This document shows, one piece after another, positions 1,802-59,510 of a DNA stretch of 64,000 nt. The notes under the pieces are model-generated. The model was not told where the DNA came from. It worked only from the letters and a program-made list of their open reading frames with translations, and did no database searches. Source of the stretch: Amoebophrya sp. A120 (Eukaryota > Protista > Dinoflagellata); assembly GCA_905178155.1 (NCBI GenBank), contig CAJINV010000004.1, positions 6,702,933 through 6,766,932 on the forward strand, in the 5' to 3' direction. Made by a program: the position numbers and the translations under genes. Position 1 is the stretch's first letter. Every line of letters starts with the position of its first letter.

Positions 1802-3597
1802 ATGCGTCTGCGCGGCAATTACATTGCTTCGCAGGTCGTCGTTGCTGCGATCCTGCTCAGCTGTACAACTACGGCCAAAGCGCTTTCTCCGGTAGTAGGG
1901 GAAGAAGAGTATGCGGATGAGCCAGTACTATCTGCGGTTCGTGGTGGCGCCCCCGCCAAGAAGCGGGGGGGGGGTCGGGGGACCTCCTCTTCCATGATGG
2001 AAACCGGGATGCAGCCGCTCGGACAAGGCCAGCAACAGCATCACGGGACTGGACACGCACGAGACCACAAACCCAACCAGCACCAGCTGCAGACAGGCGG
2101 TGGCACCTACTTTGATCAGCACCAGCTGCAGAGAGGCGGTGGCACCTACTTTGATCAGCACCAGCTGTAGAGAGGCGGTGGCACCTACTTTGACGATGAG
2201 GCCCAGGATCATCGACAGGATCATGGCGGCCAGCATCAGAATCACGGGGCTGGACACGCACGAGACCACATACCCGGACTCGGACATCAAGGCCGTCACG
2301 GGGCTAGCCACCAGGGTCCAGAACCGGAGCGAGAACCGTCTCCCAAGAGGCGCCCCAATCCACTACTAGCTGGCCCTGACGGAAATCAACGACGACAACC
2401 ACCTACGCATAACCAGGACATCAAGGACCTCTTGCCCGCTGCGCGGCATCAGGAGCGGAAAGAACTCGCGCACGAGCTCTTCAAGGTGGGCCCCACCCCC
2501 ATCGACCCAATCGTAGCAGGGGTGCGTGCGCTGCGCGAAAACTTAGAAGCTGCTGCTGAAGAATTAAGATCAACGGTAGGAGGAGCTATCGTCGAGTTGA
2601 AGAAGCAAAAAGCTGAAGTCACCATCTCTAACTTCGCTTCCGAGCACAGCACGAAGGCGAAGCTACTGATCCATACAATCGAGGAACTTATCTCCCAGAA
2701 GTAAACAGGCAGGTCATATTTGTATACGCAAACCTAAAAAAATATTTATGGAGAAAAAATCTGTGTTGCATTCCCTATCTAGACCTCATAATATGGGCTC
2801 GCCCATGACAGAACTTTTTCCATTTATTTTTGCAGTACAAATTATATGCCTTGCCTGATGTCTTTTTCTATGGGATAACGCTTCACACTGCAATGAACTA
2901 CGTGCACAAATTTGTCGAACCCCTACCCAAATTCGTAATTCCATTGCATGACCACGACAAAGAGTACATCTCCGAGCTACAAAAAGCGGTGGCTGATTTA
3001 CACACGGTGGTCCAGCACAAGCTCAAGCATGAGCCGAAACACGGGACCCATCACCAGAACAATCACGCGGGAGAAGATCATGATGAACCGGACAAGGAAC
3101 AGCACCCGGACGGGTGTCACGTCGACCTCAACGCTGCTGGTGCAACGCACCCACGTCGTTGGCAGCGGCATTCGCAGGGACAGTCATTCGCGCAAGTTGG
3201 CCCAGCTGGTTCCGTCTTGATCTCGAACGACGAACATGCCGGTCAAGCGCAATCCGAGGGCGAAAACGAGGAACAAGAAGCGGCTCTGGACTCGCAGACG
3301 GTCTCGCACATCAACAACGGCTTTTCCTCCCTCCACGACCAGGCGACGACCTTCACAACCGACGAGGAAATGCAGGTCACGGACGCGTATCTAGTGCAAA
3401 GGTATCGCACTCGTCCTAATTGCAGTCATGCATGACAAAACTCGCCTCTTAGGTCAGTCAGTATTACATATTCCATCATTTTTTCTCCACCCACTGATGT
3501 GCGATACTTTTGCGTAATGCATAACGTGGCTTCGAGCACCGATTCGGCCACGTCGAGCTCGTCCTTCGCGGCAACCCCGACTTCGTCCGATCCGTGA
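1802..3597 (+). CDS. Secreted His/Gln-rich hypothetical protein, multi-exon (boundaries partly uncertain)
   Basis: Signal-peptide-like N-terminus (MRLRGNYIASQVVVAAILLSCTTTAKA); frame 1802-2704 is open except one TAG at 2168; AT-rich intron-like segment ~2701-2835; introner 3388-3523; TGA at 3595-3597. Confidence 0.5.
2078..2192 (+). repeat. 3 x 39-bp tandem repeat encoding QHQLQRGGGTYFD
   Basis: cagcaccagctgcagagaggcggtggcacctactttga(t/c) repeated; third copy has CAG>TAG. Confidence 0.85.
3388..3523. mobile_element. Introner, family A (TGCAAAAGTATCGTACT TIR)
   Basis: TAT...ATA; TSD acgcg/acgtg; removal gives D-A-A-S-S-T in frame. Confidence 0.8.
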
Positions 3598-4683
3598 GGT
3601 GGGAGAGCGGACATGGAAGTCTCCTTCAGTGACCGGCTTCATCATCAGTCGCCGGCGACGAGGGGATTCAGATTTTTGTTGCATTCGCTTTCATACTAAA
3701 CTATGTATTACTTTACAAATTCAAATCAAAATCAAATTGAAGATCAGTGGTCGTGTCTCGTTATGATTTTTGTCCGGGCTGTGGCCCAATTTTTGTCGGG
3801 AAAGGTAAACGTCAGAAAAAGAAAATCAAAATTCGAAAATAGAATTCGTAACGAACAGAACCAACTGTGCCAACTTTTTTACATCTCCCCAAGGGAGAAC
3901 CCGCAACATGATTGAAGATTTTTTTATAAAATCATGAAGATGATGAACACGCAACATTTCATATACATATTTCAAAATGCACATCATGTACAGAATAAGA
4001 ATCAAGGGTGGGTGTGGGTGACTGAAGAGTCAATTCCACATCGACGAGAAGATGAGCCGCGGCGCTAAATAAGCAGTTCTCTGCTCTGTTGCGTTCCCGC
4101 GACACCAGCATCACGGTGGAGAAAAAGTGTATAGGGTTGTTTTTCGTTTTGAAGATCTTTTTTCTACGCTTGCTACGAAAATGTTTCCCCTGCGGCGGGG
4201 TCGTGAACTCCGATCGCGTTTGCGCGGTGGATGCTCCCCTCCTGGTACGACATATTGGATCTATTCGCTGATAGTGTATGGCTATGGTACGATTATCCTC
4301 GTCGTCTCACATCGTTTGCTTCAAAGCCGCACCCAGTTTCCTAGCTGGGCGCGTGGAACAAGACTAGATATGAACGTAAACGCAGTGTAATCTTTCCTTT
4401 CGTTCATGGAGATGATGGACGACTTATGCGTTCGGAGAGAATAAAGAGCGCGGAAGTCTTGTGAGCAAACCCCGATTTTTCAAACGAGAGAGGCAGGAGT
4501 TGTATCCGACAACCGAGTAGATGGGCTTTCTAGGTTGACATTGTTCTATGTTTGTGTTGTCGTCTACCGGCTCCTTCTCCTTCTACAGTTGTACTTCTAG
4601 CTCCTACAACTGGCTACAGCGTTTCAGGTACTGCTTATTTTCTCGAGAATTATCGCATTAGCCTTCCAACAGCCACGGAATTA

Positions 4684-7600
4684 ATGGCCACCCGTCCTCC
4701 CGAGGCAAAAGCAAAACCCCGGCACCCGCGCGCGCGCCCCCAGCCGCAGGTCGCCACGCCCCCGGCCGATGTTGAGCTGCGCGACAGCAAAGACAGCCTC
4801 GCTCGTCCCGACGCTCTGGGCGGTGCCTCCGGGCAACTACCGGCCGAACAGCAAGAGGAAAGCCTGCTGGAGGAACTCGAAGATGGCGTCGTCGGGTTTT
4901 TCAACCGGATGTTCGGCGCAGGAGTCGCGTCGCCCAGCGACGCCGCCAACGAAGACGCGTCGAACGCGATACAGAGCCCCACCACGTTCGTGGATGGCAA
5001 AACGGACGCGCGCAGCCCAGTCGGGGACAGGAGTCCAGCCGCGGCGAGTTCGAGGTCGGAGTCTGTTGGAAAAAAAGGACGTCGTAATCGGGGTGTTGCA
5101 GGAGAAGAAGAATTACAAGCAAAGTTTTTCACGGAGCAGGAGGGCCGCGAGCAAAGAACAGACGCTGAACAACAGCTTGTGGATCATAATCGGGAAGATG
5201 GGCCGCTGCTGATGTCCTCTCGACAACCTAGTTACAGCCCGGACAGGGAGCTGCAAGAAAACAATAGTTACGGATTCGTTGCTTCTGGCGGTACTTCTAC
5301 AGCTGTTCAACGAGGACGACGAGCAGGGGGAATAAAGGCCAACGCGCTGGTGCAACAAGGTCTTCTGAACGAGTCGTCCTCTTCTGCTGTGGAGCTAGAG
5401 CAGCACGACAGCGTTTCGGAAGATGTGGTCTCCAAGTCCGGGCAGGCGGGCCGGGGTCGTGCGCGGGACAAGGTGGACCAACCAAGGGGAAAGCTGTGGA
5501 CGCGGTCCAAGCTGCCCCAGCAGCGGGGTTACGACAATACGACGACGTCACAGTCACCGTTGATGTTCCCCGCAGCTCAACAGCGAGGACATCAGCAGGA
5601 GCTGCTCTACTCCGGGAAGCCGAAGCAACCCCAGCAGGTTCTTTTCCAGCGGTCCAAGGCTGCGCAGCTGGAGCGAATGCTGCGAGAGGCCAACAGTCTG
5701 ATCAGCTCCTCCGCGACTGGGGGTTCGGACCGCGAGAACCTGCGAGACTTGGCCTCGGTCCTGATGAGCAGTTACCACGAAGAAGACGAGCAGGAGGCGG
5801 ACCACGACGCAGACGACCGGACCGGCGCACGAGGACATCTTCTTCAACCGCACCAGAAATTTTGGTCTTCCTCCAACGAACGGACGAACGCGAAGACGAA
5901 AGCCAAGTTGGAATTGCTGAAGCTGAATCTCTATGAATCGCAAAAGTATCGTACTAGTGTAAATCGCAATACAAATTCGCTCAGCATGACAACGGGAATT
6001 TGTCATGCCGTTTTGCCTTGGGATGGATATTTGTATATGCATGTTTGCAATGACTGCGAGTGCGATACTTTTGCACAGGATAATCTCGAGGCCCGGGACC
6101 GGGCTTATGACACGCAATTCGAGAGTATGAGAGCGCACATCAACCCGCCGTTATTTGTCATGCAAAATCCGAAGTAGAAATCCAGTACAGTTGCAGCCCT
6201 GTAGCATTGTTGGCATGACAAATGCTGGAAGCCCAAAAAGCACTACAGTCGGCGCATAAGAAATTTGTCATGCACAGGCTCCACATGTGCTAGCGTTTAT
6301 ATTGCTGTTCAAGAGTCATGCACTCCAAAAGCGGGGGAAGTTGTGCACTCTCATAAAGAAGGCGATCGGCAATCTGAAGGAAGTACTGATGACCCAGGGC
6401 CAAATTTTCCAAGAAAGTTTGGACGCAGCCAAGGAGCAGCACAAACTGCGGGAGGAGGGGCTGGCGCAGGAGCTGCAGGTGAAAAGCGAGGAAACGGCGA
6501 AGTTGCAGCTCGAGCTGGAGCAGAAGGGGAGGCAGTTGGCCGATATCAAGAGCAAAAATGTCTGGGTCTGGAAAAATGCAACTTGTGATGCTGCATTTGG
6601 ATTCCAGAAAAATCTGTATTGCATGAGCAGCAAATGCAAAGGGAACGCGATTCTTGCTACCCGGAGAGGGCGTTTGTCATGCGGAATAGGCATCGAGATG
6701 CCCTCAAAACATCTGTGATGCTAGGGCATGCATCACCGACATCATGGCTCATGCAAAACGTGCATGACAAGTCTCAGAATCTTCCAGACCCGGACATATT
6801 TGCACTGCATAGCCGACTCGCAGGCGCAACACAAGGAACTGGAGCTGCGGTACGCCGCTATCAATTGCAAATATGTCTGGGTCTGGAAGGTGGAAACTTG
6901 TCATGGTAAATCTGAAGCATGCAGAAATCTGTGTTGCATGAGTGCCAAAAGCTGTCCACTTTTGAGAAAGTTGGAAGGGAGTTTCTCATGCAGGATAGGC
7001 ATGGCAGAGACCTCGCAGAGTCCGTCGTGCTACGTCCCGCATTCCAGACCTCATGGGTCAGGGAAAATCTGCATGACAAGTTTACACTTTTCCAGACCCA
7101 GACATTTTTGCACTTGATAGCCGCCCTGTGGAAGCAGTTCGAAAGTGCGCAGGATGTGTTGCTGGCGCAGACCGGCGGCCGGGTCGTTTATCAAGGGGAG
7201 AGAAAGACAGCCGATAAAGTTTCTTCGAGCAGGAGTCCGAAGAAAAAGAAGAAAAGTACCAACAAGAAGAGCGGCTACAGTAGTACAAGCAGCTCCAGTG
7301 GCCGCGACGAGTACAAAAAGCAGAAACGGACGAGTCCAGAAACTCAATCTGCCAAGAAGAAAAGCAGAAATAAGCGAAGAACGGCGGAACAGAGCAACGT
7401 GATCCGCGAGTATTTTCAGCGTTGGATTGACATCGTAGCGCACAAAGCAGCTACTTCGCGACGCCGGGGAGTCGGTGATGAAGAGCGGACGTCTACCATT
7501 GTTCCGCCTTCGCTAACCTCCTTCACAACCATCGGCACACCGCAGCAGCTGCGCCACACGACGACCCGCTACGATGAAAGCGATTCCGATTCCTCTTCCC

Positions 7601-9107
7601 TGGCCGCTTATCAATCGCAAATATCGTGTCTGCCTTTGGAAGATTGCAAGATTTGTGATGTAGATTTTCCATGACCCATGAGGTCTGGTATGGAGGACAG
7701 AGCATGACAGATTCTGCGACAGTCCTATCATGCCTATCCTGCATGAGAAACTTTCTCTGACATTCACATTCATCAAAAGTGGACAACTTATGATAATCAT
7801 GCAACACAGCTTTTTTCACAATCCGGACTTAGCATCACAAGTTGCATTCTTCCAGACCCAGACATATTTGCAATGCATACCGCCTTCGCAGGCTCGTTCC
7901 GCAACCCGAAGAACAGTACAACTTTCGAGCGGGACCAGGCGAAAGCTCGAATGCTTGCCGCGGAGGTATCAAATGCAAGTATGTCTGTGTCTGGAAGGAT
8001 GCAGAGGTTTGTGATGCAGCTTTGGCATGACCCAGAAGGGCTACCATGCACGCCCTAGCATCACAGGTTTTGAGAAGGTCAGTCTCTTGATGCGTAATCC
8101 GCATGACAACGCCCTTCTTTCGGTGGCCAGAAATGTGCAACTTTTGGCCTCCATGCATGACAGATTTTTGTGTGATGTGAAATGCGCATCACAAGGTCGC
8201 ATCTTTCCATACCCAGACATATTTGCAATGCATAGGAGGCCGCGCAAAGCAAATTGTTCAAAGGGCCTAGTTCGTCAGTGCGGGCGTCGGACGGAAGCAG
8301 GTACAGGAAGGACAACGGCGGAAGAAGTCGAAGCAGGGACAACTACGAGGGACAACGACTGGAGAAGATGACAGGAGGAGCACAACAAACAGGTTCTACT
8401 CGTCGTGAACAAGTAGAGGCTGCTGCGCGGGTGAGGAGTAGTACTACATCCCGAACTTCGTCTGTGAAGCAAATCGAGCGCGAACTGGAGAACGAGAAGC
8501 TCGGGATCGTCAGTGCGGCCAGTCGCGAACCAAAGTTGATATCAAGTGCAAAAATGTCCGGGTCTGGAAAAGTCGAACTTGTAATGCGTGTCTTGCGTTC
8601 CTGGAAAATCTGTGTTGCACGAGCAGCAAAAGAGAAGCTTTCTTTGTCATGCAAAAACGCAATTTGTAATTCGTCAGAAAGCGTCTCAAAAACTTGTCAT
8701 GCTTGGCTGCCATTGGAAGCGCTTCAATCATCCACATTTTGGCATCACAAGTTTCCAGACCCAGACATTTTTGCATTTCATAGCTGAAAGCCGCGGACAA
8801 AGTTGTGGAGAAAGGAAACTTTGTCTACTCGGCTTCTTCAAGGTTGGAGAATGCAGAGCGGGATCGAAGTAGAACTGACGACAAGGACCAGAATCATCAA
8901 AATTCCACTTCTAGTACCACGCAGCTAGATCGACTACGAGGACCACAGGCTAGTTCGGTACAACGAGATGGTGGCCGCACAATGGTGGTTTCGGTGCCCA
9001 CCCGATCTCCGTCCCCGAACGTGCGTGCGCAGGACCGAGAAAATGCGCGCAGCTTTTTGCAAGCCATGCGGACGACGTCCACGGAGAGGACTAGCGGACC
9101 GAGTTGA
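4684..9107 (+). CDS. Low-complexity/coiled-coil hypothetical protein interrupted by 7 introners
   Basis: One continuous frame to TGA 9105-9107 after removing elements at 5932, 6126, 6544, 6859, 7609, 7967 and 8540 plus one TSD each; coiled-coil stretch LKEVLMTQ...LELEQKGRQL; start codon uncertain. Confidence 0.7.
5932..6082. mobile_element. Introner, family A
   Basis: TAT...ATA; TSD atctc/atctc; in-frame L-N-L-E-A. Confidence 0.9.
6126..6355. mobile_element. Introner, family B (TATGAGAGTGCACAACTCCCCCTCCCCC TIR), degenerate
   Basis: TATGAGAG...CTCTCATA; TSD gagag/aagaa; removal restores frame into AIGNLKEV. Confidence 0.8.
6544..6811. mobile_element. Introner, family D (ATGTCTGGGTCTGGAA TIR)
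   Basis: TSD gccga/gccga; in-frame L-A-D-S-Q. Confidence 0.9.
6859..7119. mobile_element. Introner, family D
   Basis: TSD gccgc/gccgc; in-frame Y-A-A-L-W. Confidence 0.9.
7609..7879. mobile_element. Introner, family D
   Basis: TSD ccgct/ccgcc; in-frame L-A-A-F-A. Confidence 0.85.
7967..8234. mobile_element. Introner, family D
   Basis: TSD ggagg/ggagg; the only copy where sliding within the TSD can give GT...AG. Confidence 0.9.
8540..8782. mobile_element. Introner, family D
   Basis: TSD gttga/gctga; in-frame K-L-K-A-A. Confidence 0.85.
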
Positions 9108-10139
9108 GGAAAATTCCGTTTGTTGGAAGTAGTACTACGAGCCAGTACCCCGGCCTGGTTTTCCGTTTCGGTGCTCTCCTGACCTCGGTTTCGCGTTCTT
9201 AATTTTGCTAAACACCACCGCCAAATTCTGAGCTTTAATGAGAATATAGCTGGTCTTCATTCTGCGCCGGTGCGGGATAGTGCATACTGCAGCGCAATGA
9301 GTTCTTTGGCTCAAGATTAAATAAGGACTGTAGCATTACCGCGTATAATTAGTTTGTCAGAATGAGCGCAGGCATGTGGTCTGATACCCATCCTGTTCTT
9401 GGCCTTGCACTCAGCGAGAGGGCCTGGTCTCTCGCCCTGCTCAAGGAAGTGTTGTTCCTCCTGTTGCAGCGTTCTGGTTTCGTTCTGATGATCATCGCAC
9501 GGTCACCATATCGTACAAGCAATCTAGGATCGTGATGAAAACGAAAATCAAGGGAATGGTTGATGTCATCGTGCAAAAAAAATCGTACAACTCGTCGCTT
9601 TATCATCATGTACAAGCTAGTTAGCAGTAGCTTGTCTGACATCACATGACATCACATACGTACACATGGCATTCACGACTATCGTGCAGCTTTCGTTCAG
9701 ATTTCGTGCAGTGGCGGAATGAAAGTCTTTCTCATGAGTGGTCGTGGTGAAAATGAAATGCGAAGACGCCCACGGCATAGACATTGGTACAGGCAGCTTT
9801 GATGATTCACATTGACTTTCTTTTCATGCCTAAACATGCGACCAGGATCGCTTTCGCTGGATACACTTCGGTTGCATCATCAGATTGCCCATACCCCCCA
9901 GTAGTAGTGCCTCCTGACATCGGTTTCCTCCCCTGTCGTCGTTTTGCTCTTGCTAGTCGTGGTAGCATCTTGGACGAGCTACAATCCGTGAACAAAATCG
10001 AAAAAACTTTTGGTGAAGATGAAAATCGGTACAACTACTTAAGTTCACCTTCGGCGTTGTTCCAGTTTTTTCGTACACTTAAAAACAGGTCCTCTGAAAT
10101 AAAGAGACAACTACCACCGCTCGATACTAGTATAGTACC

Positions 10140-13100
10140 ATGATGTTGATTCGCATTTTCGAAGAAGAGGATGACCTTCACACGGAGAGCCGCGCGCCTT
10201 CCCGCGTCGACGGCACTACTAGAGGTGAGCTGTCGTCGTGGTTCTCCGCTTGGAGCCAGGAAAAGAACCAAGAGGTGGACCTAAACAAGTCCAATAAACG
10301 GAGGCCCGTGGTAGACAACTCCGCCCCCGTGCAGGAACAACTCGTCGCGCCGCAACCGCGCGTCGTAGGGAAAGTCAAGACGTCGCACTCGCACACGTTC
10401 TTCACTGGAACCACAAGGGGCGAGAGTGAGGAAGCGGCGGCTGGCGATGCGAGAACGGATCGTCATGATGATCGTGACCACTTATTTTCCGCACATGTTG
10501 AGACAGCACGGCGGATTTTTTCCGGTAGTTCAACAAGCGACGAAAACAGTACTAGCGCTAAGACAGCGTCTGTTTATCACTATGGGTTGCGTTCCTGTGC
10601 ACGAGTACTACTTTCCCGGCAAGCGGTTCTCGTCGGGCTTTCTTTCGTATTTTTGGTGTTCTATGCGGTCCACGACTTCCGACATAGAATGTTCCCGGGG
10701 TCCTCTTCCCCCTCGACTTCATCCGGTTCTGCGCCTCTGTTGATAGAGCGCTCCGTTGGCGGGAATAAATACGGCCCTGGTCGAGGACCACGTCCTCGTG
10801 GGTCTTCACGTGCTCGCGGCCGGTCACGAACTTCCACGACGTCGAATAAGGTGTCGTTCTTCTCGAAATACGAACGGCTGTGCCAGAAACTGTGTCCGAA
10901 CCACGAGACGCTGGAGGCCGACATAAAAGCCCGCCGGCTGCCGAGGCAGAACGTCTTTCTCACGGGGCCCTGGTATCCAAACCTGCTGGACGGGCCGGTC
11001 CGGCAGTATTTGTTCCCGGAAACAGAATTTATAGCGTTCTTTGACCACGCGGCCGCCGACGAAAGTATCCGGCTGATCTCGGATTTTTTGGAAGAGCAGA
11101 AGGTGTTTCATGATCTTCGTGAGGACGATGATCATTTGTCGAGCGAAGTTCGTCTTCGTGAGAAAAACTCTACACTTAATATCCACCCGAACGAAGCTTC
11201 TACGACACCGGCCCTTAGTACGAGAATGAGCCCGAAGAGGCCGTGGACGCTTTCACGAGCTTACCAGGAGGTGAATCCGCGGGCCTTCCGAGCCGACATT
11301 TGGCGCATCGCGATTGTGTATTTTTGCGGCGGGCTTTACGTAGACGCCAAGGCCACCTGGCCGGAAACGAGCTTCACTGCGAAGGTGAAAGAGCAATCAC
11401 GTCGAGAGGCTTCTAAAGACCAAGGGCGAGGAGGCGCGCGGCCTGGTACTACTAGCCGCCGCCTGGCGGAACGTGACGTAGACGCTGTTGATCTCTGGCG
11501 GCTTGAGGGAGTTCAAAAGAGAAAGGACGCGGCTTCTTCCCCTCCGGCGCGAATCTTTGGCTCCATGGGGGCTCATATTAAGCAGCGGAACAAGAAAGTA
11601 GACGGGGGAGAAAAAGACGATCATGAAAGAACAGACGAGGAACGCGACAAAGACGAGGAAGATGTAGTGAAAATAAATGCCGACCCGTACGAGCAACAGT
11701 TGCGAGATTCAGAGGCGCGTCCAGGTACTAGTTTCTCGACGCCCACGTCTCATTTCTCTGCAAGTAGGGTGAAAAAGAAGCGCAAGCGGTTTAAGAGTGG
11801 GGGGAAGAAAGAGAAAAGCAAAAGCCGGCAGAGGAATGAACCGGTGGTCAAACAGGCGGGTAGTAAAATCGAAGAGCAGCGCGACCGGGGTGGAGTTGAC
11901 GAGGACCAAAGCGGGGAGGGGAACAAAGGTACAGCAGGTTCGACGCGTGCCTCTGAACTAGAAAGCGAATTGTCGAAGGTGAAGATGAACCTCTCGACGA
12001 TAAGTTCGGTCTTTGAGAAGCTGGCAACTCCAACTCCTCCGGGTCGTGGTCGTGCGAACAATACTAAGAACTACACCATGAGCGCAGGCGAGGTGCTTTT
12101 CTGTTTGGATCACGACGCGCTCGCCGGGGGCGGTTTGACTAACCGCCTGCTGGCCAGCTACCCCAGGAACCCGGCGTTACTCTACTTTCTGCGGCAGCAA
12201 ATTCAAAACAGCATGGATATGCGATACGACTTCGGCAGGGACGTCGCAGAGGTACACATTCCGCTTTTGTACCCAACCGGTCCGGGCCTCGTGACGAGTG
12301 TGGCTTTGCAAGAACCTTGTTTACAGAGCACCCTCGTCCCCCGGTGCGCCATGGCAAAGGGCGCCGAGCCGTTTCGGCGCTACCAGCCGGCGGCGGTAGT
12401 CCAAGAGGTATGTGGTGAAAAGTGTCCGGCGGAGTATTACGATGCTGTTTTTTCTCCGGAATATCATGACCGCTTCACGTCTCTCGCAAACGAAGCGCGG
12501 AAGAATCAACCAGACCTGTGCGACGAGGAACGAATGCTGCGAGATTTGAAGAACGCAACTACGTCCTCTTCCTTCTTTCGCGGGCCCTTCCGTTTGGCCA
12601 AGAAGCGTAGAAAAGAGGGAAAACGTAGTGTGGACAATCAAGAGAGCGCTGAGGAAACGACCACCACGCCTCGTGCTCCCCTTCCGCTGCTCCAACGATT
12701 TCTGGATGATTGGCGCGATGACCCGTGGTCCCCCCACAAAGTGGATCTGCGAACCGGCCTGCTGTTCTCGTGGGACAGACACTATGCATTGCAAATGTGT
12801 CTGTGTCGGGAAGGATGCGAATTTGTGATGCGCATTTCACAACACACACAAATCTCTCATGCAGAGGCAGCAAAGGATCAAGATGCGGATGTCCATTTCC
12901 TGTCACCACGGTGAAGGATTTGTCTTGCGGATTAGGCAATGCGGAAGCTTCTCGACATTTGTGATGCTTCTGCGGCTTCCTCGACATACATTCTGCGTAG
13001 TGCAAAAACAGCATGACAAAAATCCGCATTGTTCATGCCGACCCAGACATACTTGCATTTGATAGACACGTGCATGCAGCCATGCACAACAAGCAGAACC

Positions 13101-15113
13101 AAGACTCCGACTGCAGCAATTACGGAGAGATCTTCAGACACCATAGGGTCTATTGCAGCGAGCTGGAGGGACCGCAAGATCACTGCCGGCAAGCCTGCCT
13201 CGAAGCCGCACCCCTCCTCGGGCAGGAGCGAGACGAGAGCAAGTTGGTGCCAAGAACAACGAGGCTGAATAAAACGCTGTATCGACAGAAGTCCGTCAGT
13301 GAAAGGGCAAGGGCCGCGCTCGCAGAAAAAGAAATTCAGCACAGGATGGGAGTTTCGAAAGCGTACGCGACAAAAACTCTCGAACAGTTCGAGTTTGTCA
13401 TCAGCCCTGACGCCCGGGCGGACGACCCCGTAGCGGAGAAGCGGCGCTTGACTTTGGAGATGCCGGTGCTTCCCTACGTTGTGCAGGCGCAGCATTCGTA
13501 TTTCATCTCCGCCCTGAAACTGATTCTCGAGGACGAAGAGAACATCCAAGAGGGCAACGGTGCTACTCTTCTCCGCACGATTACAACGAAAAATGTGGAG
13601 CCTGCTCCACTCACGCCTACTTACCAGGATAATTCCTTTTTCCCTTATGGTGGGACGCATCTCGCTATGAGAGTACACAACCCCCCCTCCCCCTCCTTTG
13701 GTTTTATGCAAAGTTCCAAGTTATCCAGTCTGTTCCTCTTGGTACTGTTTGCATGACAAGTTCTGGTATCCCAAATAGAAGTAGAACTACACGCCAGTGT
13801 AAATTTGTCATGCAGAAGCAGAGCGAACCGAAACCGGAATTCTTGCTGATACTGAACCTGATGCTTGTCTGTTTGCCGTTTATGCTATACAAATGAGGGG
13901 GGGAGTTGTGCACTGTTATACTCGCCGCTGCCAGGTATGGGAGCCTGGTTGGTTACACCGGTAGCCGCTACAATTTTGTGGATTTTGATACGGACTATCT
14001 TGTCTGGGTGAAGAAGGAAGAGGGCGAACCGCAGGGGCGCGCCACGAGAAGGTTTTTCAAAGCTCTCGTGGAGGACTACTTTGGGAACGACCTTGCAAAA
14101 CCCGGGCCAGGCGACCCCGCGCTGGGGCACTGGGCCTGGCGCGCAGGTGAAGTCGGTCGGTCCTGTATTCTCGTAGACCTTGACGGTGCCGCTGGCGTTC
14201 CGGATCTGCCCTATGCCTATTGGCCGTCCGAAAACGTGGCCGCCATCCGGGATTCGGAGCTGCAGCGCGGGGACATCTTGCCCGAACCGGCTGGCTGGAT
14301 CGGTGAAAAATTCAGGAGGCACGACTCACACGGCTTCCGGTTGTACGCAGACGTGTGCGTGATTGAGTATGACGAAAAGGTGGGCAAGGCCTGTCTCGAC
14401 GCGAACCAAGAAAACTTGAGCGTTCGCTTCTGGTTAGATAACGAAACGAACTGCATCCGGGACGAGATCTTGCCCAAGCTTTTGCCGCCGAAGTTCGCGT
14501 CCGCCGCCCGGCGGGCGGACAAATCATCCTGGCAAATGCTGAAAGTCGATGGACACACGTTGCAAACGCCTGGCGAGGTGCTCTGGGCCACGACGACCAA
14601 GTTGGCGAAAAAGGACCGGTACAACAGGTCTCCTCCTCATCCTGGCGCGGGGCGCGAGGCTGCTTCATCAGTGTTTTCCTCCTCACCTACTTCGTCCAAA
14701 ATTACAGCGCAGGACGCTGTAATTAAAAGACCCGATCCAACAAGTCGTTTGGTATCTAACTATTGCATGCCTCCTGCAGGTGTGATCGTGAGTGGCGAAT
14801 GGTGGAACACGACGCGCGAGGCGCCGCTCAGCGACCAAGAGTGCGAAGCGATTCTGAAACACATCGCACAAGTTTCTTCTCCGCTCGCCCCTTTCTGTCG
14901 TTCGGGCATTGATGTTGATTGTAAGTATGTTGCGGAGGAGCGACGGGGGGGCTTCGAGGTGGGCAGGGTCCGTCTACGAAACAGAGAAAAAAAACAGTCC
15001 CAGCTTCCCTACCATCCCACGATACCGCGGGCGCACCACGACCCGAAACTAGCACGAGAACATCTGCAAGGCTTGCACCGAGCCAGCATTGCGGGCGCGA
15101 AAAGGGTGGTCGC
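10140..15113 (+). CDS. Type II membrane GT32/OCH1-like glycosyltransferase fused to a C-terminal LicD/fukutin-like nucleotidyltransferase domain (runs into N gap)
   Basis: TM segment AVLVGLSFVFLVFYAV; GT32 motifs AFRADIWRIAIVYFCGGLYVDAK, LTNRLLASYPRNP and TGPGLVT; after removing introners 12783-13064 and 13666-13920 the frame continues into YGGTHLAAARYG...VDFDTDYLV (LicD-like GTLLGAxR...DxDxD). Confidence 0.7.
12783..13064. mobile_element. Introner, family D
   Basis: TSD gacac/gacac; removal gives WDRHVHAAMH, colinear with FDKGVHQAMH of the intronless paralog. Confidence 0.92.
13666..13920. mobile_element. Introner, family B
   Basis: TSD ctcgc/ctcgc; splits the GGTHL|AAARYG motif. Confidence 0.9.
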
Positions 15114-15245
15114 NNNNNNNNNNNNNNNNNNNNNNNNNNNNNNNNNNNNNNNNNNNNNNNNNNNNNNNNNNNNNNNNNNNNNNNNNNNNNNNNNNNNNNN
15201 NNNNNNNNNNNNNNNNNNNNNNNNNNNNNNNNNNNNNNNNNNNNN
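15114..15245. other. Assembly gap (N run)
   Basis: Run of n. Confidence 0.99.
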
Positions 15246-49960: not shown

Positions 49961-50086
49961 CGACAATTCGTTTTCATATTAGTCCTCCCCAGGACACAAG
50001 GAAGCTGTCTCTCTTAATCCTTGCTTTTTTAGTTCATTTCTCCATCCTTTTCCATATCCTTTTAGCAAAAAGCCTGGCAGCTGCAT

Positions 50087-52918
50087 ATGATGATGGCAGG
50101 TGTCGCGGACGAGCGGGAAGATAATAGTCTCCATGCAAACCAGCAACAGGAGATCACCGAGAAGACGAAGCTACTCCCTTCTCCGACGGGCGAAACCACG
50201 CGAAAGCCTGCGTGGATTGACAAGGAGAAATACGTTACCGCTTCGCAGGGTGTAGTCCTGCAGGCAGCACAGAAGATCGCAACACGGAATCATGTTGCAC
50301 CTACAACAAATTACAACGACGCAGATGGAGATGGAGATTTGGGCGACCACGATACGGCTTTTCAGCAGAAGCTGTACGCACCCTACCTCATCACGTCGAA
50401 ATTCAAAATCTGGTGCGTTTGCGCAGTCTGGATGTATTACGGGATGGTGCTGTCGACTTACGTTGCGTTCACCATTCCACTAGAGGCAATGCGGATGGCA
50501 CCGGCGTGGCAGAGCTCCTTTGTTGTGCTGGAGCGGGTGATCTACGGACTGATGCACTTAACCGCGCCGTTTTTCGGAAAGTATTGATTTCGATTTTTTT
50601 TTGTTTAATATTCCGATGCGATATTATTTCAATTTCATGCCATGTGCCTCGTCTCTGCAAGACGCGAAACACATCCAATTTGCACAACAACGAACGATCT
50701 GTCTCAACACCAGGCTTTCAGACGAGACCCGGCACCCGTGGGGCAAGCGCCGACCTCTGCTCGTCGCGGGTGCGTTTCTGCTCCTGGCCTCGCACACGAT
50801 GCTGTTTTTTGCCTCCGACAGGTTACAGATGTACACGTATCTCTTCGCCCTCGCCGGCGCCATGGTGGCCAAGAACCTTATCATTGCCTGCACCTCGGGG
50901 TATTTGGCCGATGTGGTGCCGAAGGAGCTGTCTTCCACCGTGTCTGGGATTACCACACTGCAGTGCGCCACGGGGTGTCTGATTGGTATCCTGTGCAAAA
51001 GTATCGTATTCGTACTACTTGCAAATATGCATGACAAATTTTTTTCCTAAGGAAAACAGCATTACAAATTCCACTTTCCTTCTTGCCAAAATTTGTATAT
51101 GCAATTTATACTAGTACGACTACGACACTTTTGCAATGCATAATTGGGTTCGGGCTGCAATATCTCCTCGCCTCCACCGCGGTCAAGTTTACATACGTCT
51201 ACGTAACCGGGTTCTACATGCTTGGCGCCCTGCTTTTCTTCTTCGTGGCGTCGGAGCCGCCGAGCGACGTGCAGAGCCTGCAGCGGTTGCGACAGGAATT
51301 TGAGAAGGAAAACACCCACACTGGTGCTAGAAGTACGACTACCCAGGAGATCGGGATTCCTGCACCATCAACCCCTATTACTCCCTCGACCACGGCGCAA
51401 CATTCGGCGACCGATACGGAGTCCGTTGCGAGCAGCCACTTAGTACAGAATGAAGCGGCGGACGACTACTACACGAACCGGCAGCCAAGATACAACAGCA
51501 CCAACCTCCACGCCAGTCTGGCGGACCGCTCAACGCGGGCACCGTCTTTATTATCCTCGCGCGGGCCGACGTTGCAGCGCAGCGGGTACAGCAGCGACGG
51601 GCAAACCAGCGGCATGACAGACGATACGGAAGATTCTGATGCTTATATGAACAACCGCGCGGAAGACATCATTGACACACACATGCGGTACACGCACTAC
51701 AACAGTGTCGCGGTGGTTGCAAATTCGACGAATGGGGCCAGTGGCGACAACTATGATAACCCTCGCGACCACCCAGCAGTAGACCAACGGAGAGCACAAC
51801 AGGAACAGACCCGTATAGCACGAGAGCATCACTCGGTTGGAGAAGGGCAGCCACTCGATGAACACTATCAGAAGTTGATGACGCAGCACCAGGATCAGCA
51901 CAACAATTTGGATTCGAACGTCGACAAAACAAAGGGGGAGCACGGCGAAAATAAAAATGCTTCTTGGTCTTCCAATACCACCACCTGCTGCACCAGTCTC
52001 GCCGCTGCTTCGCAGTATATGTCGTCCTTTTGGAGCACTTTCTGGCACGCGCTTACCATTTCACCGGACTACCAGTATCTGGTGCTGGTTCGGATTTTCT
52101 TTTACGCCGGCTGCAGTTCCATGAGCATGTTTCTGTTCTACCTGCGGGACGCACTCCATGTCCCTACTAAGGCAGAGGGGATTCAAAAACTCTCGTCCCT
52201 CGCCATGATTAGCCAGTGTGCGATCATTGTTGTCGCGGTGGGTGCCACGCTGTTGACAAGTCGGGTGTACGCACAGAAGATGCTAATTTTCCTCGGACTG
52301 GGGGCCATGATGCTGACATTTCTGACGTTGTCTTTCTTACCCATGTTGACTCCGGAATACGCGAACTTGCACAACAAGAACGTCTATGTGGAACAGGACA
52401 GCAGTCCTACATCAAGTTCGCTGCTAACGGAATCCACTTTGTCTATGATCGTACACGTGGGCGGCTTCGGGTACGGCCTGGGCACGGGGTGCATGGCGGT
52501 GGGGGACATGGGGCTCGCTCTGAAGCTTGTTCCGGCCGGGGTAGGAAACGGAGCGGCCATGAGCATTTTCGGCCCGAGCATCACCTACGGGTTTGTCCTC
52601 GGCAGCATAATGATCGGGACGGTCTTGCAGTATTTTAAAATACCTGGTGGCGCGGAGGACAAGGAACACTCCGCCGTGGAGCTGGCTACGGCGGCAAGCC
52701 GGAAGCAACAACCGCTCGACCACATGGCCTCGACCACAGCGCCGCCGACTTCCAAGGCAGATTTCAATGGAGTTTTGTGGGAGCCGGGCTACACCGAGGG
52801 CGGGCACCAAGTGATAGCGATGTGCTCCCTGGTTCTGTGTGGGATTTCCGCCGCGCTGCTGTACACCGTGGACACGCGTCGGGCGCTCGCGAAGACCGCG
52901 AATGGGGAGCAGGAATAG
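50087..52918 (+). CDS. MFS transporter, SLC45/sucrose-transporter(GPH)-like, paralog A
   Basis: GKLSDETRHPWGKRRPL motif, multiple TM helices, long central loop; GT-AG intron 50581-50713; one introner. Confidence 0.8.
50987..51142. mobile_element. Introner, family A
   Basis: TSD attgg/attgg; site empty in paralog B. Confidence 0.92.
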
Positions 52919-54220: not shown

Positions 54221-57200
54221 ATGATGACAGACGTTGTGGCGGATGACGTTGACGACCGGCAAAACAAAAACATGATGAACAATATGAACCGAGACAACCA
54301 CGAAGAAGCCACCGAGAAAACACGGCTCCTCTCTAGTGCAGGAGTTCATCCCGGGGCAGTAGAAGAGACGAGAAAACCGGTTTGGCTTGACAAAGACAAG
54401 TACATCACGAATAACTCCACACCCCGGATGGAAGTAGATTCACATGAACAACTGTTACCAGCGAGTAAACAGCACTTGTCAACAAAGCAAGGCCTGGACC
54501 TGGACGGAGGTGCAGGAGCAGCAGGCGCATTATACGATGATGCCGACGCTTGGGGAGACCACATATGAGAGTGCACAGCTCCCCCTCCCCCTCATTTGTA
54601 TTGCATCAACAGCAATACAAGCGTCAGCAAGAATACAGGTTTTGCATGACAAGTTTGGTGTTGGACAGGATTGTAGTGCTACTTGGGCTGCCAGAACTTG
54701 TCATGCTAAAAGGGCCAAGAGGCAAGGCGTAAATTAGGTATTTTGCATGACAAATGAGGGGGAGGGGGAGTTGTGCACTCTCATACCACAACACTGCCTT
54801 TCAGAAGAAGCTGTTCGCGCCCTACCTTGTCACCTCTAAATGGAAAATATGCAATGCAAAAGCATCGTACTAGTATAAATTGCATGACAAATTAGCCCAG
54901 CATTACAAATTTAATTTGTAATGCTGATTTACCTTGAAAAAGAGATTTGTAATGCAGAAATGCAATTACTACGAGAGAGTACGATACTTTTGCACAGGAT
55001 AGAAAATCTGGTGCCTCAGTTCCTGCTGGGTGTACTACGGGATGGTGTTATCGACCTATGTTGCGTTTACCATCCCGTTAGAAGCGATGCGGATGGCGCC
55101 GGGGTGGCAAAGCTCCTTTGTCGTGCTCGAGCGCATGATCTACGGACTGACGCACTTGACCGCGCCTTTTTTCGGAAAGTACTATTTCGATGCTTTTTTA
55201 TATCGTTTGCGTTTCACAACGATCACGATGAGACATAAATGTCAATCTGTTTTCATTGCAGATTTTTGCCAGACCGCTTTTAATATTCGTTTTCGTTACT
55301 TACGAACATGAGGAGTTTTAGATTTACTCGCAACAGGACTTCATGGCTGGCCAGCATGACTCCAGGTGTAAATTTGTGTTGCATGCTTTACATCATTAAA
55401 TCAACAGGATTTCCGACGAAACCCGGCACCCGTGGGGCAAGCGTCGACCGCTGCTGGCCGGAGGTGTGTTTCTGCTTCTATCCTCCCACACGATGCTATT
55501 CTTTGCCTCCGATCAGCTCGCGATGTACCTCTACCTGATCGCCCTCAGCGGCGCCATGGTGGCGAAAAACCTTGTCATTGCCTGCACGTCCGGGTATTTA
55601 GCCGATGTCGTGCCGAAGGAGCTGTCTTCCACCGTGTCTGGCATTACCACCATCCAGTGCGCCACAGGGTGTCTGATCGGGTTCGGGACGCAATATATGC
55701 AATGCAAAAGTATCTTACTAGTATAAATCGCATGACAAATTCCCTCAGCATGAAAAATTTATTTTGTGATGCGGATTTACTTAGCTTCAGAAAAAAATTT
55801 GTAATGCATGAGTGCAATTACTACGAATACGATACTTTTGCACAGGATACAATATCTACTCGCCTCCAGCGCGGTGAAGTTCACGTACGTCTATGTGACG
55901 GGCGTCTACGTTATGACAGTGCACAACTCGACGTCTCCCTCCCCCTCATTTGTGATGCAAAGTCCCCAAATGATTTGTTGCCTTGTGGCACTGTTTGCAT
56001 GACAAATTTCGGAAGCCTAAACAGTACCACAGTCGGCCTGTGAACTTGTCATGCACAGGCTCCAAGTGTGTTGGTGTTTGTATTGCTGCTCATGCCATGC
56101 AAATGGGGGGGGGGTTGTGCACTCTCATATACGTGCTCGCGACGCTACTTTTCTTCCTCGTCGCCTCGGAGCCCCCGAGCGACGCGGAGAGTCTGCAGCG
56201 GTTTCGACAAGAGTTCGAGCGGGAGGAGCGAGCACGGGCGGGGAATCAGCAGGGTATGTCGGCTATGCGTTGCAAAAGTACTGCACTTCTACCATAAATT
56301 GCATTACAAACTAGCTCAGCATGACAAATGCGATTTGTGATGCTGTTTTGGCTTAGGAAGAAGATTTGTCATGCGTACCTGCAAGCAGTACGAGTGCGAT
56401 CCAACTTTTGCAATGTATATCGGCCGCTTCACTCACACCCCCGACCACCGCTCAGCAATCATCCGCGACCGATGCCGCGACTGACACGGAGTCCGTCGCG
56501 ACCAGCCAGCTGTACTCCGCCCGGGTATCGAAGAAAAATAAAGTGTGTAAGTGTAATTTCGTAGGAAGAACAGCAGCACAAATTGTGCAATGCAGGGAAA
56601 ACCTGTCATGCGCAGCTAGTACGTGGAAACACGTATGAAAGTTGCCGATGACGCAAATCCAGCATGACAAGCGTATACAGTTTTGCATTTCCTGCATCAC
56701 AGACTTACACTTACGCAGTGTTTTTCTTGCATACCGGGACAGCGCGGATTATTACACGCACCGGCAGCCGAGGTATCTGCAGAACGCGAGTCTCGCGGAT
56801 CGCTCCACGCGGGCGCCCTCCTCGCGCGGTGGAGGTCGGGGGCCCAGTGGGGCGACGCAGCAGGGGTACAGCAGCGACGGGCAAACCAGTATCGTAAGAA
56901 AAAATCCCCCCTCCCCATGTCGAAAAGGTCCGTCTAAGGAAATTTGTAATGCTCATTTGTGACCACAAATCGTCTCTGTCTTGCAGCAGGAACGAAACTA
57001 CACGACAGGCTCCGCCGCATTCTGCAGGCGGTCGGTGATGCTGTTGGCCCTACGGACTAGACGTTTGCCATGCTTAGCGCCTAGCAGAAAACCTCTCTAC
57101 TCGGGCTTAGTATAGGCCCGCAGTTCTCTCCAGCAAGACGAATCTGATTTGTGTACACAAATCCAGCATCAGAAACTTCGTTTTGATATGGGGAGAGGGC

Positions 57201-59510
57201 ACTTTTCCTTTTGATAACCAGCGTGACCACGGACACGGATTCGGATTTTTACAACAACGCGGAGGACATCATCGACACGCACATGCGGTATACGCATTAC
57301 AACAGTGTCGCAGTAGGAACAGCCGGTAGTGGAACGACGTCGACGCCACGGCCAACAACCTCAGGAGCTTCGCCGAACAACTATGTGTCGAACACGATCT
57401 CTACTTCCAACAACGAGCGCAACCTGGAGCTGCACTCAGCCGAGGTAGAAAATGATGATTCCTCTTTTTTCGCCTCCTGCTCCGCAGGCCTTGCCGCCGC
57501 GTCAGGCGCCATGTCGTCCTTCTTTGGTACTTTCTGGCACGCGCTTACCATCTCACCGGACTACCAGTATTTGGTTTTCGTGCGAATTTTCTTCTATGCC
57601 GGATGCAGTTCCATGAGCATGTTCCTTTTTTACCTCCGAGATGCGCTTCATGTACCTACCAAGGCGGAGGGGATTCAACAACTTTCGTCTCTTGCCATGA
57701 TCAGCCAGTGTGCGATCATTGTCGTCGCACTGGGTGCGACGTTGCTGACCAGTAGGGTGTACGCGCAGAAGGTGCTGGTGGGCGTCGGGCTGGGGGCCAT
57801 GTATCCTGAGTAAAAACGTACCCACACCAGAGTCAGGATGGGGATTTTGCAACACAAACCTAGGAGTTTTGTGAGTCACGCATGACAAGTTGCACTATTC
57901 AGTGTAGTGCAGGTTGGCAAGTGCAGCCGCGTCACAGATTCATCTGCTCATCCTGTTCACAGCATCACAAATCCCAAAACACGAGTGGAAATGGCTTTCA
58001 TGGGGATGCGCATTACAAATGTTCCTGTCATTGCAAATCTGCATGACAACTCTGGTGTGGGGACGTTTTTACTCAGGATACCATGGTCCTCGTGTTTTCG
58101 ACTCTGTGTCTTTTGCCCATGCTGACCCCAGAGTACGCGAGCTTCCACTACGGGGAAAACAACCCCGCGAAGAGCTTGATCCTGACGGAGTATCCTAAGC
58201 AAAAACGTCCTCACCCCATAGTCAAGTTGGTAAATCTGCAACACAATATATCTCCAAGTTTTGGGAGATGTGCATGACAAGTCTCCATCTACAGTTTAGT
58301 GGGGGTTAGCAAGGGAAGCCGCATGAAAAGACCATTTGCTCATCCTGTTCACAGCATTACAAATGCCAAAACACGATTGGAAATGCCTCTGATGTAGATG
58401 CGCATTACAAATGTTCCTGTCATTGCGCATTTGCATGACAACGCTGGGGTGGGGACGTTTTTGCACAGGATTCGGAGACCGGCGTGTCCATTCTGGTACA
58501 CATTGGCGGATTCGGTTACGGCCTGGGCGTCGGGTTCATGGGAGTCGGTGACATGGTATGACAGTGCACAACTCCCCCTCCCCCTCATTTGTCCTGCACA
58601 ATACCCAACTCACCCTTTGCCCCTTGGCACTGTTTGCATGACAAGTTCTGGTAGCTCAAAGAGCACCATACTCCCGTGCAAATTTGTCATGCAAAACCGG
58701 CACGCTTGTTGATGCTTGTATTGCGGTTCATGCAATACAAATGAGGGGGAGGGGGAGTTGTGCACTCTCATACATGGGACTCGCTTTCAAGCTGGTTCCG
58801 GCCGGGGTGGGGAACGGTGCCGCCATGAGCATTTTCGGCCCCAGCATCACCTACGGCTTTGTCCTCGGCAGCATCGTCATCGGGACGGCCCTGCAGCACT
58901 TCAAGGTGCCGGGGGGGTCGGAAGACAAGCACTCCGAAGCGGAGATGGCGGAGGCGGCAAGCCGGCAGCAAGCGCTCGACCAGGCGCAGGCGGCGTCAGG
59001 AGCTACAGCGGGGGCCGCGCCCAAGGCGGATTTTAACGGGGTTTTGTGGGAGCCGGGCTACACGGAAGGCGGGCACCAACTGATAGCGCTGTGCTCGGTG
59101 ATTATGTGTGGGATTGCCGCCGCGCTCCTGTACAAAGTGGACACGCTATCAAAAGAAAAAATCCCCCTTCCCCATATCAAAACGAGGTTTCTGATGCAGG
59201 ATTTGCGTACACAAATCAGATTTGTCTTGCTGGAGAGGAATGCAGGCCCATACTAAGCCTAAGTAGAGAGGTTTTGGCCTAGGCGTCTAGCATGAGAAAC
59301 GTCCTTGCTGCAGGGGCTCACCAGCATCACAAACCGCCTGCAAAACACTGTGGAGCTCGTGGAGTTGCCTTCTTGCAAAACAGACGCGATTTGTGGTCAC
59401 AAATCAGCAACACAAATTTAAACGTACCTTGTCAATATGGGAAGGGGGGTTTTTCCTCGCGATACACGCGCCGGGCGCTGGCCAGGACCGCGAATGGAGA
59501 ACAGGAGTAG
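54221..59510 (+). CDS. MFS transporter, SLC45/sucrose-transporter-like, paralog B (11 introners)
   Basis: Colinear with paralog A after removing 11 elements and GT-AG intron 55179-55407; identical C-terminus TANGEQE*. Confidence 0.82.
54564..54785. mobile_element. Introner, family B
   Basis: TSD ccaca/ccaca; ~36-bp near-perfect TIR. Confidence 0.93.
54848..55001. mobile_element. Introner, family A
   Basis: TSD gaaaa/gaaaa. Confidence 0.92.
55696..55849. mobile_element. Introner, family A
   Basis: TSD caata/caata. Confidence 0.92.
55912..56129. mobile_element. Introner, family B
   Basis: TSD tacgt/tacgt. Confidence 0.92.
56264..56419. mobile_element. Introner, family A variant
   Basis: TSD tcggc/tcggc. 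Confidence 0.88.
56526..56733. mobile_element. Introner, family G (AAGAAAAA...GTAAGTGTAA TIR)
   Basis: TSD ccggg/ccggg. Confidence 0.88.
56890..57216. mobile_element. Introner, family E (opposite orientation to 27531 and 59147)
   Basis: TSD accag/accag. Confidence 0.92.
57802..58080. mobile_element. Introner, family C
   Basis: TSD ccatg/ccatg. Confidence 0.93.
58191..58472. mobile_element. Introner, family C (right end ATT)
   Basis: TSD cggag/cggag. Confidence 0.9.
58557..58772. mobile_element. Introner, family B
   Basis: TSD catgg/catgg. Confidence 0.93.
59147..59464. mobile_element. Introner, family E
   Basis: TSD cacgc/cacgc; removal gives VDTRRALARTANGEQE. Confidence 0.93.

Follow-up and report, generated by a model that had tools for sequence, protein, structure and literature searches.

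The window analyzed here, a 64,000-nt stretch of contig CAJINV010000004.1 from Amoebophrya sp. A120 (positions 6,702,933 to 6,766,932), carries nine plus-strand genes whose coding exons are interrupted by short elements that start with TAT, mostly end with ATA, and are flanked by a 5-nt direct repeat. An initial annotation, made from the sequence alone, had listed 48 such insertions of 136 to 327 nt, and the same 48 make up our curated list; all of them start with TAT and 44 end with ATA, as had been claimed, but the repeat said to flank every one is exact in 39, with one mismatch in eight and two in one. A 49th element had been missed, at 2689-2877, where 2 of the 5 repeat letters remain. A strict scan, for stretches that start with TAT, have an exact 5-nt repeat on their flanks, and show complementarity at 12 or more of 20 terminal bases, gave 38 matches in the window, compared with none in 17 of 20 shuffled sequences and one to three in the remaining three, and a scan that required neither TAT nor the repeat recovered 40 of the 48 elements as well as the new one. 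All 49 lie in coding exons (coding share, 58%; chance, ~3e-12), and none was found in the 17.8 kb of intergenic and untranslated sequence or the 4.4 kb of canonical intron sequence of the window.

Clustering of the 48 elements with blastn gave six multicopy families (13, 8, 8, 8, 3, and 2 copies) and six singletons. The annotated count of at least eight families with unrelated terminal inverted repeats (TIRs) was therefore fair, but the TIRs are not wholly unrelated, sharing TAT-N7-A(A/C)A. A GCATBACA core lies inside 46 of the 49 elements, with 137 copies in 11.5 kb of element sequence, none in the 17.8 kb of intergenic sequence, 3 in 30.3 kb of coding sequence, and 4 in the canonical introns. 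The element ends are predicted to pair (at least eight pairs) in 48 of 49 cases in the sense orientation and 46 of 49 in the antisense orientation, compared with 0 of 11 canonical introns. TIRs, a constant target-site duplication (TSD), many short noncoding copies, and empty sites are all present, as in miniature inverted-repeat transposable elements (MITEs), i.e., nonautonomous TIR DNA transposons.

The elements are published introners of Amoebophrya A120 (Farhat et al. 2021; PMC7789003), as the initial annotation had recognized: the spliced 635-aa DBP3-like model is identical to P0001, an annotated A120 protein, and the published description agrees. According to that paper, 65% of A120 introns are noncanonical, some with RNA support; the introners are ~240 nt long, their inverted-repeat (IR) motifs start with TAT, 7 nt, and AAA, their direct repeats (DRs) span 3 to 5 nt, and no cognate transposase is reported. 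Because RNA-supported noncanonical introners with 5-bp repeats and TAT starts were described there for this same strain (sections 10 and 11 and the Fig. S19 legend), we count the system as already known. The Fig. 3 legend gives the splice sites as variable or unknown relative to the hairpin, and the paper mentions four letters of the repeat preceding the 5′ end. Gozashti et al. (2025; PMC12130899) list TIR introner families of A120 whose annotated splice sites are heterogeneous; one of these families (Dataset row fam38) is noted there as having a 5-bp TSD and TA/TA termini. The window elements share with Farhat's introners the strain, the TAT-N7-AAA ends (TAT in 48 of 48; A at positions 11 to 13 in 88, 88, and 98% of nonseed ends), the IR with a DR over the exon-intron border, and RNA support; what is measured here in addition is a fixed 5-nt repeat, one register, a symmetric constraint on TAT, the absence of a G/AG bias, exon-only siting, and a common core motif. 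The register, symmetric constraint, lack of a G/AG bias, exon-only pattern, and core motif were not found in the open-access texts searched, which do not include the logos of Farhat Fig. 3 and S19 to S25, where the register or core motif might already be visible.

As had been stated, removal of each element plus one repeat copy (element + 5 nt) opened all nine host genes (49 of 49 elements), and with the 12 GT-AG introns also removed, no model contained an internal stop, while a single element left in place caused a premature stop in 47 of 49 cases. This frame test fixes the removed length only modulo 3, removal of element + 2 or + 8 nt opening 47 of 49. In the DBP3-like gene, both element junctions are gap-free in homologues (up to 19), Protein Data Bank helicases align end to end across the first of them, and the 11-residue peptide proposed for the DEAD-motif junction was confirmed in orthologues. 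Sites in the major facilitator superfamily (MFS) genes had also been checked against a paralogue; the empty sites are gap-free at 9 of 12. The label "LicD-like" found no backing, no Pfam family appearing at an E value of ≤0.01 for the three exons tried. Just one of the 49 elements (7967) can be slid to GT..AG, as stated by the initial annotation, and nearby in-frame GT..AG pairs are available for 45 of the 49.

Two parts of the window, 2800-14100 and 33100-44100, were compared with RNA and DNA contigs; 22 elements lie inside them and the other 27 of 49 outside. Four contig sets from one sample were taken as RNA, an assignment supported by a poly(A) loose end at 9363, a lack of cover over 9586-9962, and record lengths that leave no room for the canonical introns. 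We found that RNA contigs lacked element + 5 nt at 16 of the 22 elements (11 through the joints listed, 4 from the length of the record, and 1 from a loose end) and that none contradicted this. In 2800-14100, such joints were present at 8 of 10 elements, in three or four runs, the other two elements having no RNA cover; at 2689, the 30 letters of the loose end, read as those next to the joint, give loss of element + 5 nt and an open frame. In 33100-44100, three elements were joined exactly in RNA record 11, two more were skipped in it by length (154 letters), and two were skipped in RNA record 10 by length (677 letters) (Table 1). Families 1, 2, and 3 were removed in both orientations, nearby GT..AG pairs were not used at any of the 11 joints listed, and every RNA run kept the same letter at each site with unequal repeats. 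In the DNA contigs (~40× over 33100-44100), the exon runs straight into the element with no other letters, and among the 15 of 340 DNA joints listed (one DNA run, elements present), none was an element + 5 skip. We concluded that removal occurs without GT-AG at the level of RNA contigs and that it is exact in the dominant RNA form.

At five elements with unequal repeat copies, the letters kept in RNA (Table 1) fit a single cut, between repeat letters 4 and 5; the removed RNA therefore reads N-UAU...AUA-NNNN. Element 7967 reads GT..AG at this same register. These sites give modest support to one cut register, N1-UAU...AUA-N4. Among stop-codon cases in other loci, described below, all three with a firm strand call allow the register and two weak calls split; a further case (L054) that had seemed to conflict with it was dismissed when its strand proved to have been called wrongly. 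Table S4 of Farhat et al. has NT donors for all 9 A120 pairs and TT donors for all 9 pairs from strain A25, but we regard it as ambiguous because 8 of 9 A120 acceptors are AN, as the mirror register would give, which probably reflects the aligner's choice.

Table 1. Elements of the window, with the RNA evidence for their removal, and the host genes with individual entries
Positions	Strand	Feature	RNA evidence
2689..2877	.	Missed by the initial annotation; repeat decayed (2/5)	Loose RNA end at 2881; keeps left letters 1-3
3388..3523	.	Family 1; repeat differs at letter 4	Joint 3386/3528, 4/4 runs; keeps left letter
5932..6082	.	Family 1, reverse	Joint, skip 156
6126..6355	.	Family 2; repeat differs at letters 1, 5	Joint 6121/6357, 3/4 runs; keeps left 1, right 5
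6544..6811	.	Family 3	Joint, skip 273
6859..7119	.	Family 3	Joint, skip 266
7609..7879	.	Family 3, reverse; repeat differs at letter 5	Joint 7603/7880; keeps right letter
7967..8234	.	Family 3, reverse; sole element reading GT..AG, at the inferred register	Joint
8540..8782	.	Family 3-like; repeat differs at letter 2	Joint 8536/8785, 4/4 runs; keeps left letter
12783..13064	.	Family 3	No RNA cover
13666..13920	.	Family 2	No RNA cover
15536..15732	.	Family 2; same insertion as 13666, in duplicated gene	
22779..22994	.	Family 2, ends AAA; repeat differs at letter 4	
23030..23170	.	Family 1	
23243..23496	.	Singleton; TIR is that of the 815-nt element in L016	
25232..25502	.	Family 3	
25770..25932	.	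Ends family 1-like	
25979..26261	.	Ends family 3-like	
26654..26933	.	Family 4	
26959..27211	.	Family 3, reverse	
27297..27480	.	Family 1	
27531..27850	.	Family 5	
27942..28220	.	Family 4, ends AGA	
28861..29121	.	Family 3-like; repeat differs at letter 1	
29414..29563	.	Family 1	
30291..30570	.	Family 4; repeat differs at letter 3	
33287..33547	.	Family 3; repeat differs at letter 2	No joint among those listed
33589..33868	.	Family 4; 20/20 terminal bases complementary	No joint among those listed
37221..37505	.	Family 4, reverse; directly after DEADRMLD of DBP3	RNA record 10, by length
37739..37888	.	Family 1, reverse, in DBP3; repeat differs at letter 1	RNA record 10, by length
40357..40576	.	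Family 2, reverse, ends ATG	RNA record 11, exact join
40934..41083	.	Family 1	RNA record 11, exact join
41534..41839	.	Singleton	RNA record 11, by length
41999..42209	.	Singleton	RNA record 11, by length
42527..42677	.	Family 1, reverse	RNA record 11, exact join
43462..43744	.	Family 4, reverse	RNA piece ends at left edge; no joint among those listed
43828..43983	.	Family 1	No joint among those listed
50987..51142	.	Family 1, in MFS1; site empty in MFS2	
54564..54785	.	Family 2, in MFS2	
54848..55001	.	Family 1, in MFS2	
55696..55849	.	Family 1, in MFS2	
55912..56129	.	Family 2, in MFS2	
56264..56419	.	Family 1, in MFS2	
56526..56733	.	Singleton, in MFS2	
56890..57216	.	Family 5, in MFS2	
57802..58080	.	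Family 4, in MFS2	
58191..58472	.	Family 4, in MFS2, ends ATT	
58557..58772	.	Family 2, in MFS2	
59147..59464	.	Family 5, in MFS2	
22487..34103	+	Host gene, weak calpain-domain match; 16 elements, 6 GT-AG introns; open for 1466 codons	
36182..38992	+	DEAD-box helicase gene (DBP3-like); 2 elements, 2 GT-AG introns; 635 aa	
54221..59510	+	MFS2 gene (label of the initial annotation); 11 elements, 1 GT-AG intron; paralogue 50090-52918 with 1 element	

For a larger sample, we used the family 1 end pattern, which retrieved at least 149 metagenome stretches, of which 148 loci (L001 to L148; 496 kb) were analyzed. They contain 440 distinct elements, and the repeat is 5 nt, exact in 288 (length 4 in 3, lengths 6 to 9 in none). 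Orientation was assigned with a codon model (33 of 35 correct in the window), giving 287 to 344 oriented copies. Neither terminal letter of the intron showed an excess of G (ratios of 1.02 to 1.08), AG stood at the acceptor in 27 of 322 copies (25 expected), and GT..AG was present at the register in 9 of 322, so that neither the GT/GC..AG ends of U2-type introns nor an enrichment of them was found. Nor was there any preference for TATG at the 5′ end (75 versus 84), for a purine after the cut, or for one orientation (62 versus 47); the flanking letters are free. YTRAY occurs at 76 of 322 element ends, a count that is uninformative because only 1 of 12 canonical introns has it. The TAT triplet is conserved alike at both ends (changes: 8 for the 5′ end in the sense orientation, 13 for the 3′ end), and its letters change ~3-fold more slowly than a neutral estimate of 3.3% (18 of 1605, or 1.1%, versus 105 of 1610 repeat mismatches, or 6.5%; P = 3e-8), a rate that retains some bias because an end with one of its six signature letters changed still passes the detector. 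Pairing is 98 to 99% at positions 1 to 3, 29 to 57% at positions 4 to 7 (dominated by family 1), and 79 to 97% at positions 8 to 20. Flanks are coding-like in 335 of 410 cases; the cutoff used admits 24% of the controls from intergenic sequence and 94% of the elements of the window. Single repeat mismatches are synonymous in 31 of 67 cases (39 to 43% expected), which fits one freely mutating copy, and coding of both copies at omega ≤ 0.2 was rejected (P ≤ 0.002).

Three patterns of the window were not replicated in these loci: a G excess at repeat letter 4 (21 of 48, P = 0.026), TAT conservation at the 5′ end only (48 versus 44), and a synonymous excess among single mismatches (7 of 8). In the loci, insertions are unequally distributed over the three phases (142:82:98, P = 1e-4), and the two positions that follow the repeat have an excess of C (P = 6e-4 and 2e-3); neither trend is clear in the window, where the phases are 17:17:15.

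The bipartite ends, the 5-nt duplication, and the GCATBACA core suggest that one transposase family lies behind the elements. Integrases of the long terminal repeat (LTR) type make 5-nt duplications. No autonomous partner with the same ends was found in the window or in the 496 kb of loci, Pfam searches of the open reading frames (ORFs) of two long intergenic repeats in the window gave no transposase, and viral contigs gave no match to the family 1 end. Long TAT...ATA copies with exact 5-nt repeats do occur at L016 5523-6337 (815 nt) and L003 505-1608 (1104 nt). The initial annotation had proposed a search for long elements with the same TIRs that encode a transposase; the 12 read-through frames of these two gave no Pfam match below an E value of 0.36 and no transposase or integrase-type DDE ORF. 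Family 38 of A120 (808 to 810 nt, 5-bp TSD, TA/TA termini, and TIRs; PMC12130899) can be likened by length and ends to the L016 copy; its reported Copia/Gypsy likeness was not reproduced in that copy, which has no Pfam match in six frames. With regard to a Ginger-like, LTR-integrase-derived class, the 12 frames gave no integrase match, and the 5-nt TSD and TA ends agree with the family 38 entry (PMC12130899).

Taken together, the RNA joints, the removal in both orientations, and the absence of a G/AG bias support the earlier proposal that removal is guided by structure or terminal signals and not by GT-AG. We put at about one in two the probability that the elements are nonautonomous inverted-repeat transposon copies that are removed at the RNA level by machinery reading the paired ends, through a cut-and-ligate route resembling that of Euglena. 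Insertion, probably by an integrase-type transposase binding the TAT-N7-AAA ends and GCATBACA, would duplicate 5 nt of target. The transcript ends are predicted to pair in either orientation, closed by UAU/AUA; the transcript would probably be cut 1 nt ahead of UAU and 4 nt beyond AUA, whatever the flanking letters; and joining of the exons would restore the preinsertion sequence, as is seen in the dominant RNA form. Selection may maintain UAU/AUA after insertion, and the cut may be ruler-like. All 12 canonical introns of the window are strict GT-AG, and the ordinary route therefore still needs GT-AG; the symmetry of the element ends and their indifference to flanks beside such introns favor a separate cut-and-join route, whose chemistry would be that of cutting and ligation.

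The closest published parallel is the nonconventional intron of Euglena, for which the code N3-CDG...CH′G-N5-6 is given by Nomura et al. (2025; PMC12501133). There, too, MITE-like introns with paired ends carry a paired triplet whose distances to the two cuts are fixed but unequal, and they coexist with GT-AG introns (PMC12501133; PMC11282704). The triplet and spacers differ (CDG/CH′G with 3 and 5 to 6 nt in Euglena, UAU/AUA with 1 and 4 nt in Amoebophrya), and the Amoebophrya elements show no purine preference at the next exon start, have a constant 5-nt repeat, and belong to an unrelated lineage; the signature N1-UAU...AUA-N4 differs from N3-CDG...CH′G-N5-6/R. Euglena-type introns pair their ends and are released as full-length circles, and of these traits pairing is predicted for 48 of 49 window elements. 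The likeness would thus be one of working, not of membership, but the elements resemble the paired-triplet code of Euglena more closely than they do a spliceosomal intron or imprecise SOS splicing (see below). Introns of Fritillaria and diplonemids are likewise transposon derived or end paired, without GT-AG, and on a genome scale; those of Fritillaria follow a separate consensus (AG-AC, AG-AT) and are removed by the spliceosome (PMC11282704, PMC13326754, PMC12621601), whereas the terminal letters are free in Amoebophrya.

Several observations weigh against this reading. No enzyme, intermediate, or excised RNA was seen in the RNA and DNA contigs and loci examined. The precision claim is limited to the dominant form because contigs hide minor isoforms, and two raw RNA runs (X9 and X10) gave 4 and 21 reads, all partial. 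The register comes from five sites in one RNA sample (with random registers, some single fit has P = 0.26 and this fit P = 0.06), and L001, weakly oriented, disallows it. One folded element differed from shuffles by a z score of only −1.9, element 40357 ends with ATG and was removed nonetheless, and few nonsynonymous mismatches fall on letter 4 of the repeat (1 of 8), which some wobble in the cut would fit. Finally, the inferred donor N-UAU matches the commonest canonical donor of the host, GUAU (7 of 12), at positions +2 to +4, which favors the spliceosome.

Use of the U2 spliceosome is accordingly a close rival, with odds nearer to one in three: the hairpin would bring the ends together, U6 and U5 would read N-UAU as a donor lacking the +1 G, and the acceptor would be set by distance. 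According to Farhat et al. (PMC7789003), most spliceosomal proteins and U2, U4, U5, and U6 were found in Amoebophrya, U1 and snRNP27 were not, and 15% of canonical A120 introns have IR/DR ends; elsewhere, loss of SNRNP27K accompanies +4U donors (PMC10581693) and worm spliceosomes can use a UU donor (PMC11098459). The NT and TT donors of Table S4 point the same way, weakly, given the acceptors that start with A. Against the spliceosome, ~300 copies show no enrichment of +1 G, −1 G, or AG, TAT is equally conserved at both ends, and orientation is not preferred.

SOS splicing is the sole pathway of this kind with known factors (AKAP17A, CAAP1, and RTCB; Zhao et al. 2025, PMC12779559); there, pairing of inverted terminal repeats (ITRs) in exonic DNA transposons triggers their loss from mRNA, and GT-AG is ignored. 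In Amoebophrya, loose cuts near the paired ends, with the 5-nt repeat and decay of bad products mimicking exactness, would suit the letter 4 deficit and the seven of eight synonymous single mismatches of the window. We nevertheless consider this improbable. SOS splicing is described as imprecise, sequence independent, and leaving indels (PMC12779559), whereas all 11 listed joints here are exactly element + 5 (in contigs, where minor forms are invisible), the elements are fixed in essential genes, and genes with 7 to 16 elements must have all of them restored. The same letter was chosen in every run at each unequal site, the larger set rejects coding of both copies, and scrambled ITRs are tolerated by SOS (PMC12779559), whereas here the TIRs are short and imperfect with a conserved TAT. 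Neither RTCB nor AKAP17 is mentioned in the portion of the Farhat supplement text consulted (PMC7789003).

Excision from DNA in some life stage, as with ciliate internal eliminated sequences, the RNA then copying cleaned DNA, would fit the symmetric end conservation, the orientation independence, and the loss of one repeat copy. It is very unlikely, since DNA contigs cross exon-element borders at single-copy depth, no skip appears among the DNA joints listed, and the kept letters follow gene direction (left 1 to 4, right 5), with 6126 a left-right mosaic. A hairpin plus a direct repeat is a known setting for reverse-transcriptase jumps, and the RNA data are cDNA-derived contigs, but artifacts of this sort, in dead genes or with elements retained, are the least credible explanation, as exact joints were also found at repeats with no more than 2 or 3 matching letters (2689 and 6126), retention stops 47 of 49 frames, and comparison with up to 19 homologues shows DBP3 to be intact over its two sites.

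With paired UAU/AUA, cut distances of 1 and 4 nt, and free flanks, a defined cis code makes the way in which Amoebophrya removes its noncanonical introns directly testable through the positions of lariat or circle junctions, mutations that block removal, and a need for RTCB-type ligation versus the spliceosome. More tentatively, and with somewhat less confidence than in the reading above, we suggest a second, spliceosome-independent, exact mRNA splicing system with the code N1-UAU...AUA-N4, convergent with that of Euglena. Such a system would let an exon-targeting transposon family of the integrase type settle freely in exons and would have given rise to introns in the tens of thousands. Provided that it works apart from the spliceosome, it would join Euglena and animal SOS splicing as a third instance of hosts that remove DNA transposons from their mRNA and would be the first such instance that is exact and has a fixed target duplication.

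Every gene modelled in the window lies on the plus strand. The canonical introns of the window mostly have GTAT or GTAC donors and A/C-rich acceptors without a pyrimidine tract. The core motif occurs in 4 of the 12 (sites listed: 23557-23778, 26410-26578, 34466-34608, 34783-34965, and 38638-38795), and in 38638-38795 a 5-nt repeat accompanies a TAT...ATA stretch; conversion of old elements may be the origin of some canonical introns. Micro-exons of ~20 to 45 nt separate neighboring elements of the 16-element gene (26938-26957 and nearby). An element-free paralogue of the gene at 10140 lies at 17813-20779, with a weak glycosyltransferase DXD match (E = 1.5e-4, just under the cutoff). The region 13376-16947 is a tandem duplicate across an N gap, in which the common element differs by 10 mismatches and 88 gap columns and the upstream 250 nt by 1 difference; the duplicate may be partly an assembly effect.

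Other repeats are also present. An intergenic foldback element at 48105-49960 has arms of >500 nt, TTA...TAA ends, an exact 5-nt flanking repeat, and a long ORF with no Pfam match; its start, TTA plus two purines, is the signature given for introners of strain A25 in PMC7789003. Inside the canonical intron 30933-33140 lies an ~2-kb inverted-repeat element (31129-33119) with a tandem array of 68- to 72-nt units. A repeat of ~730 nt, with copies at 21484-22214, 44059-44791, and L071 4503-5225 that are 83 to 86% alike, starts with TAT and has an inverted repeat, short and subterminal, and perhaps 5-nt repeats on its flanks; the stop codon of the gene at 39590-44065 lies within the 44059 copy, which may therefore be a long intron.

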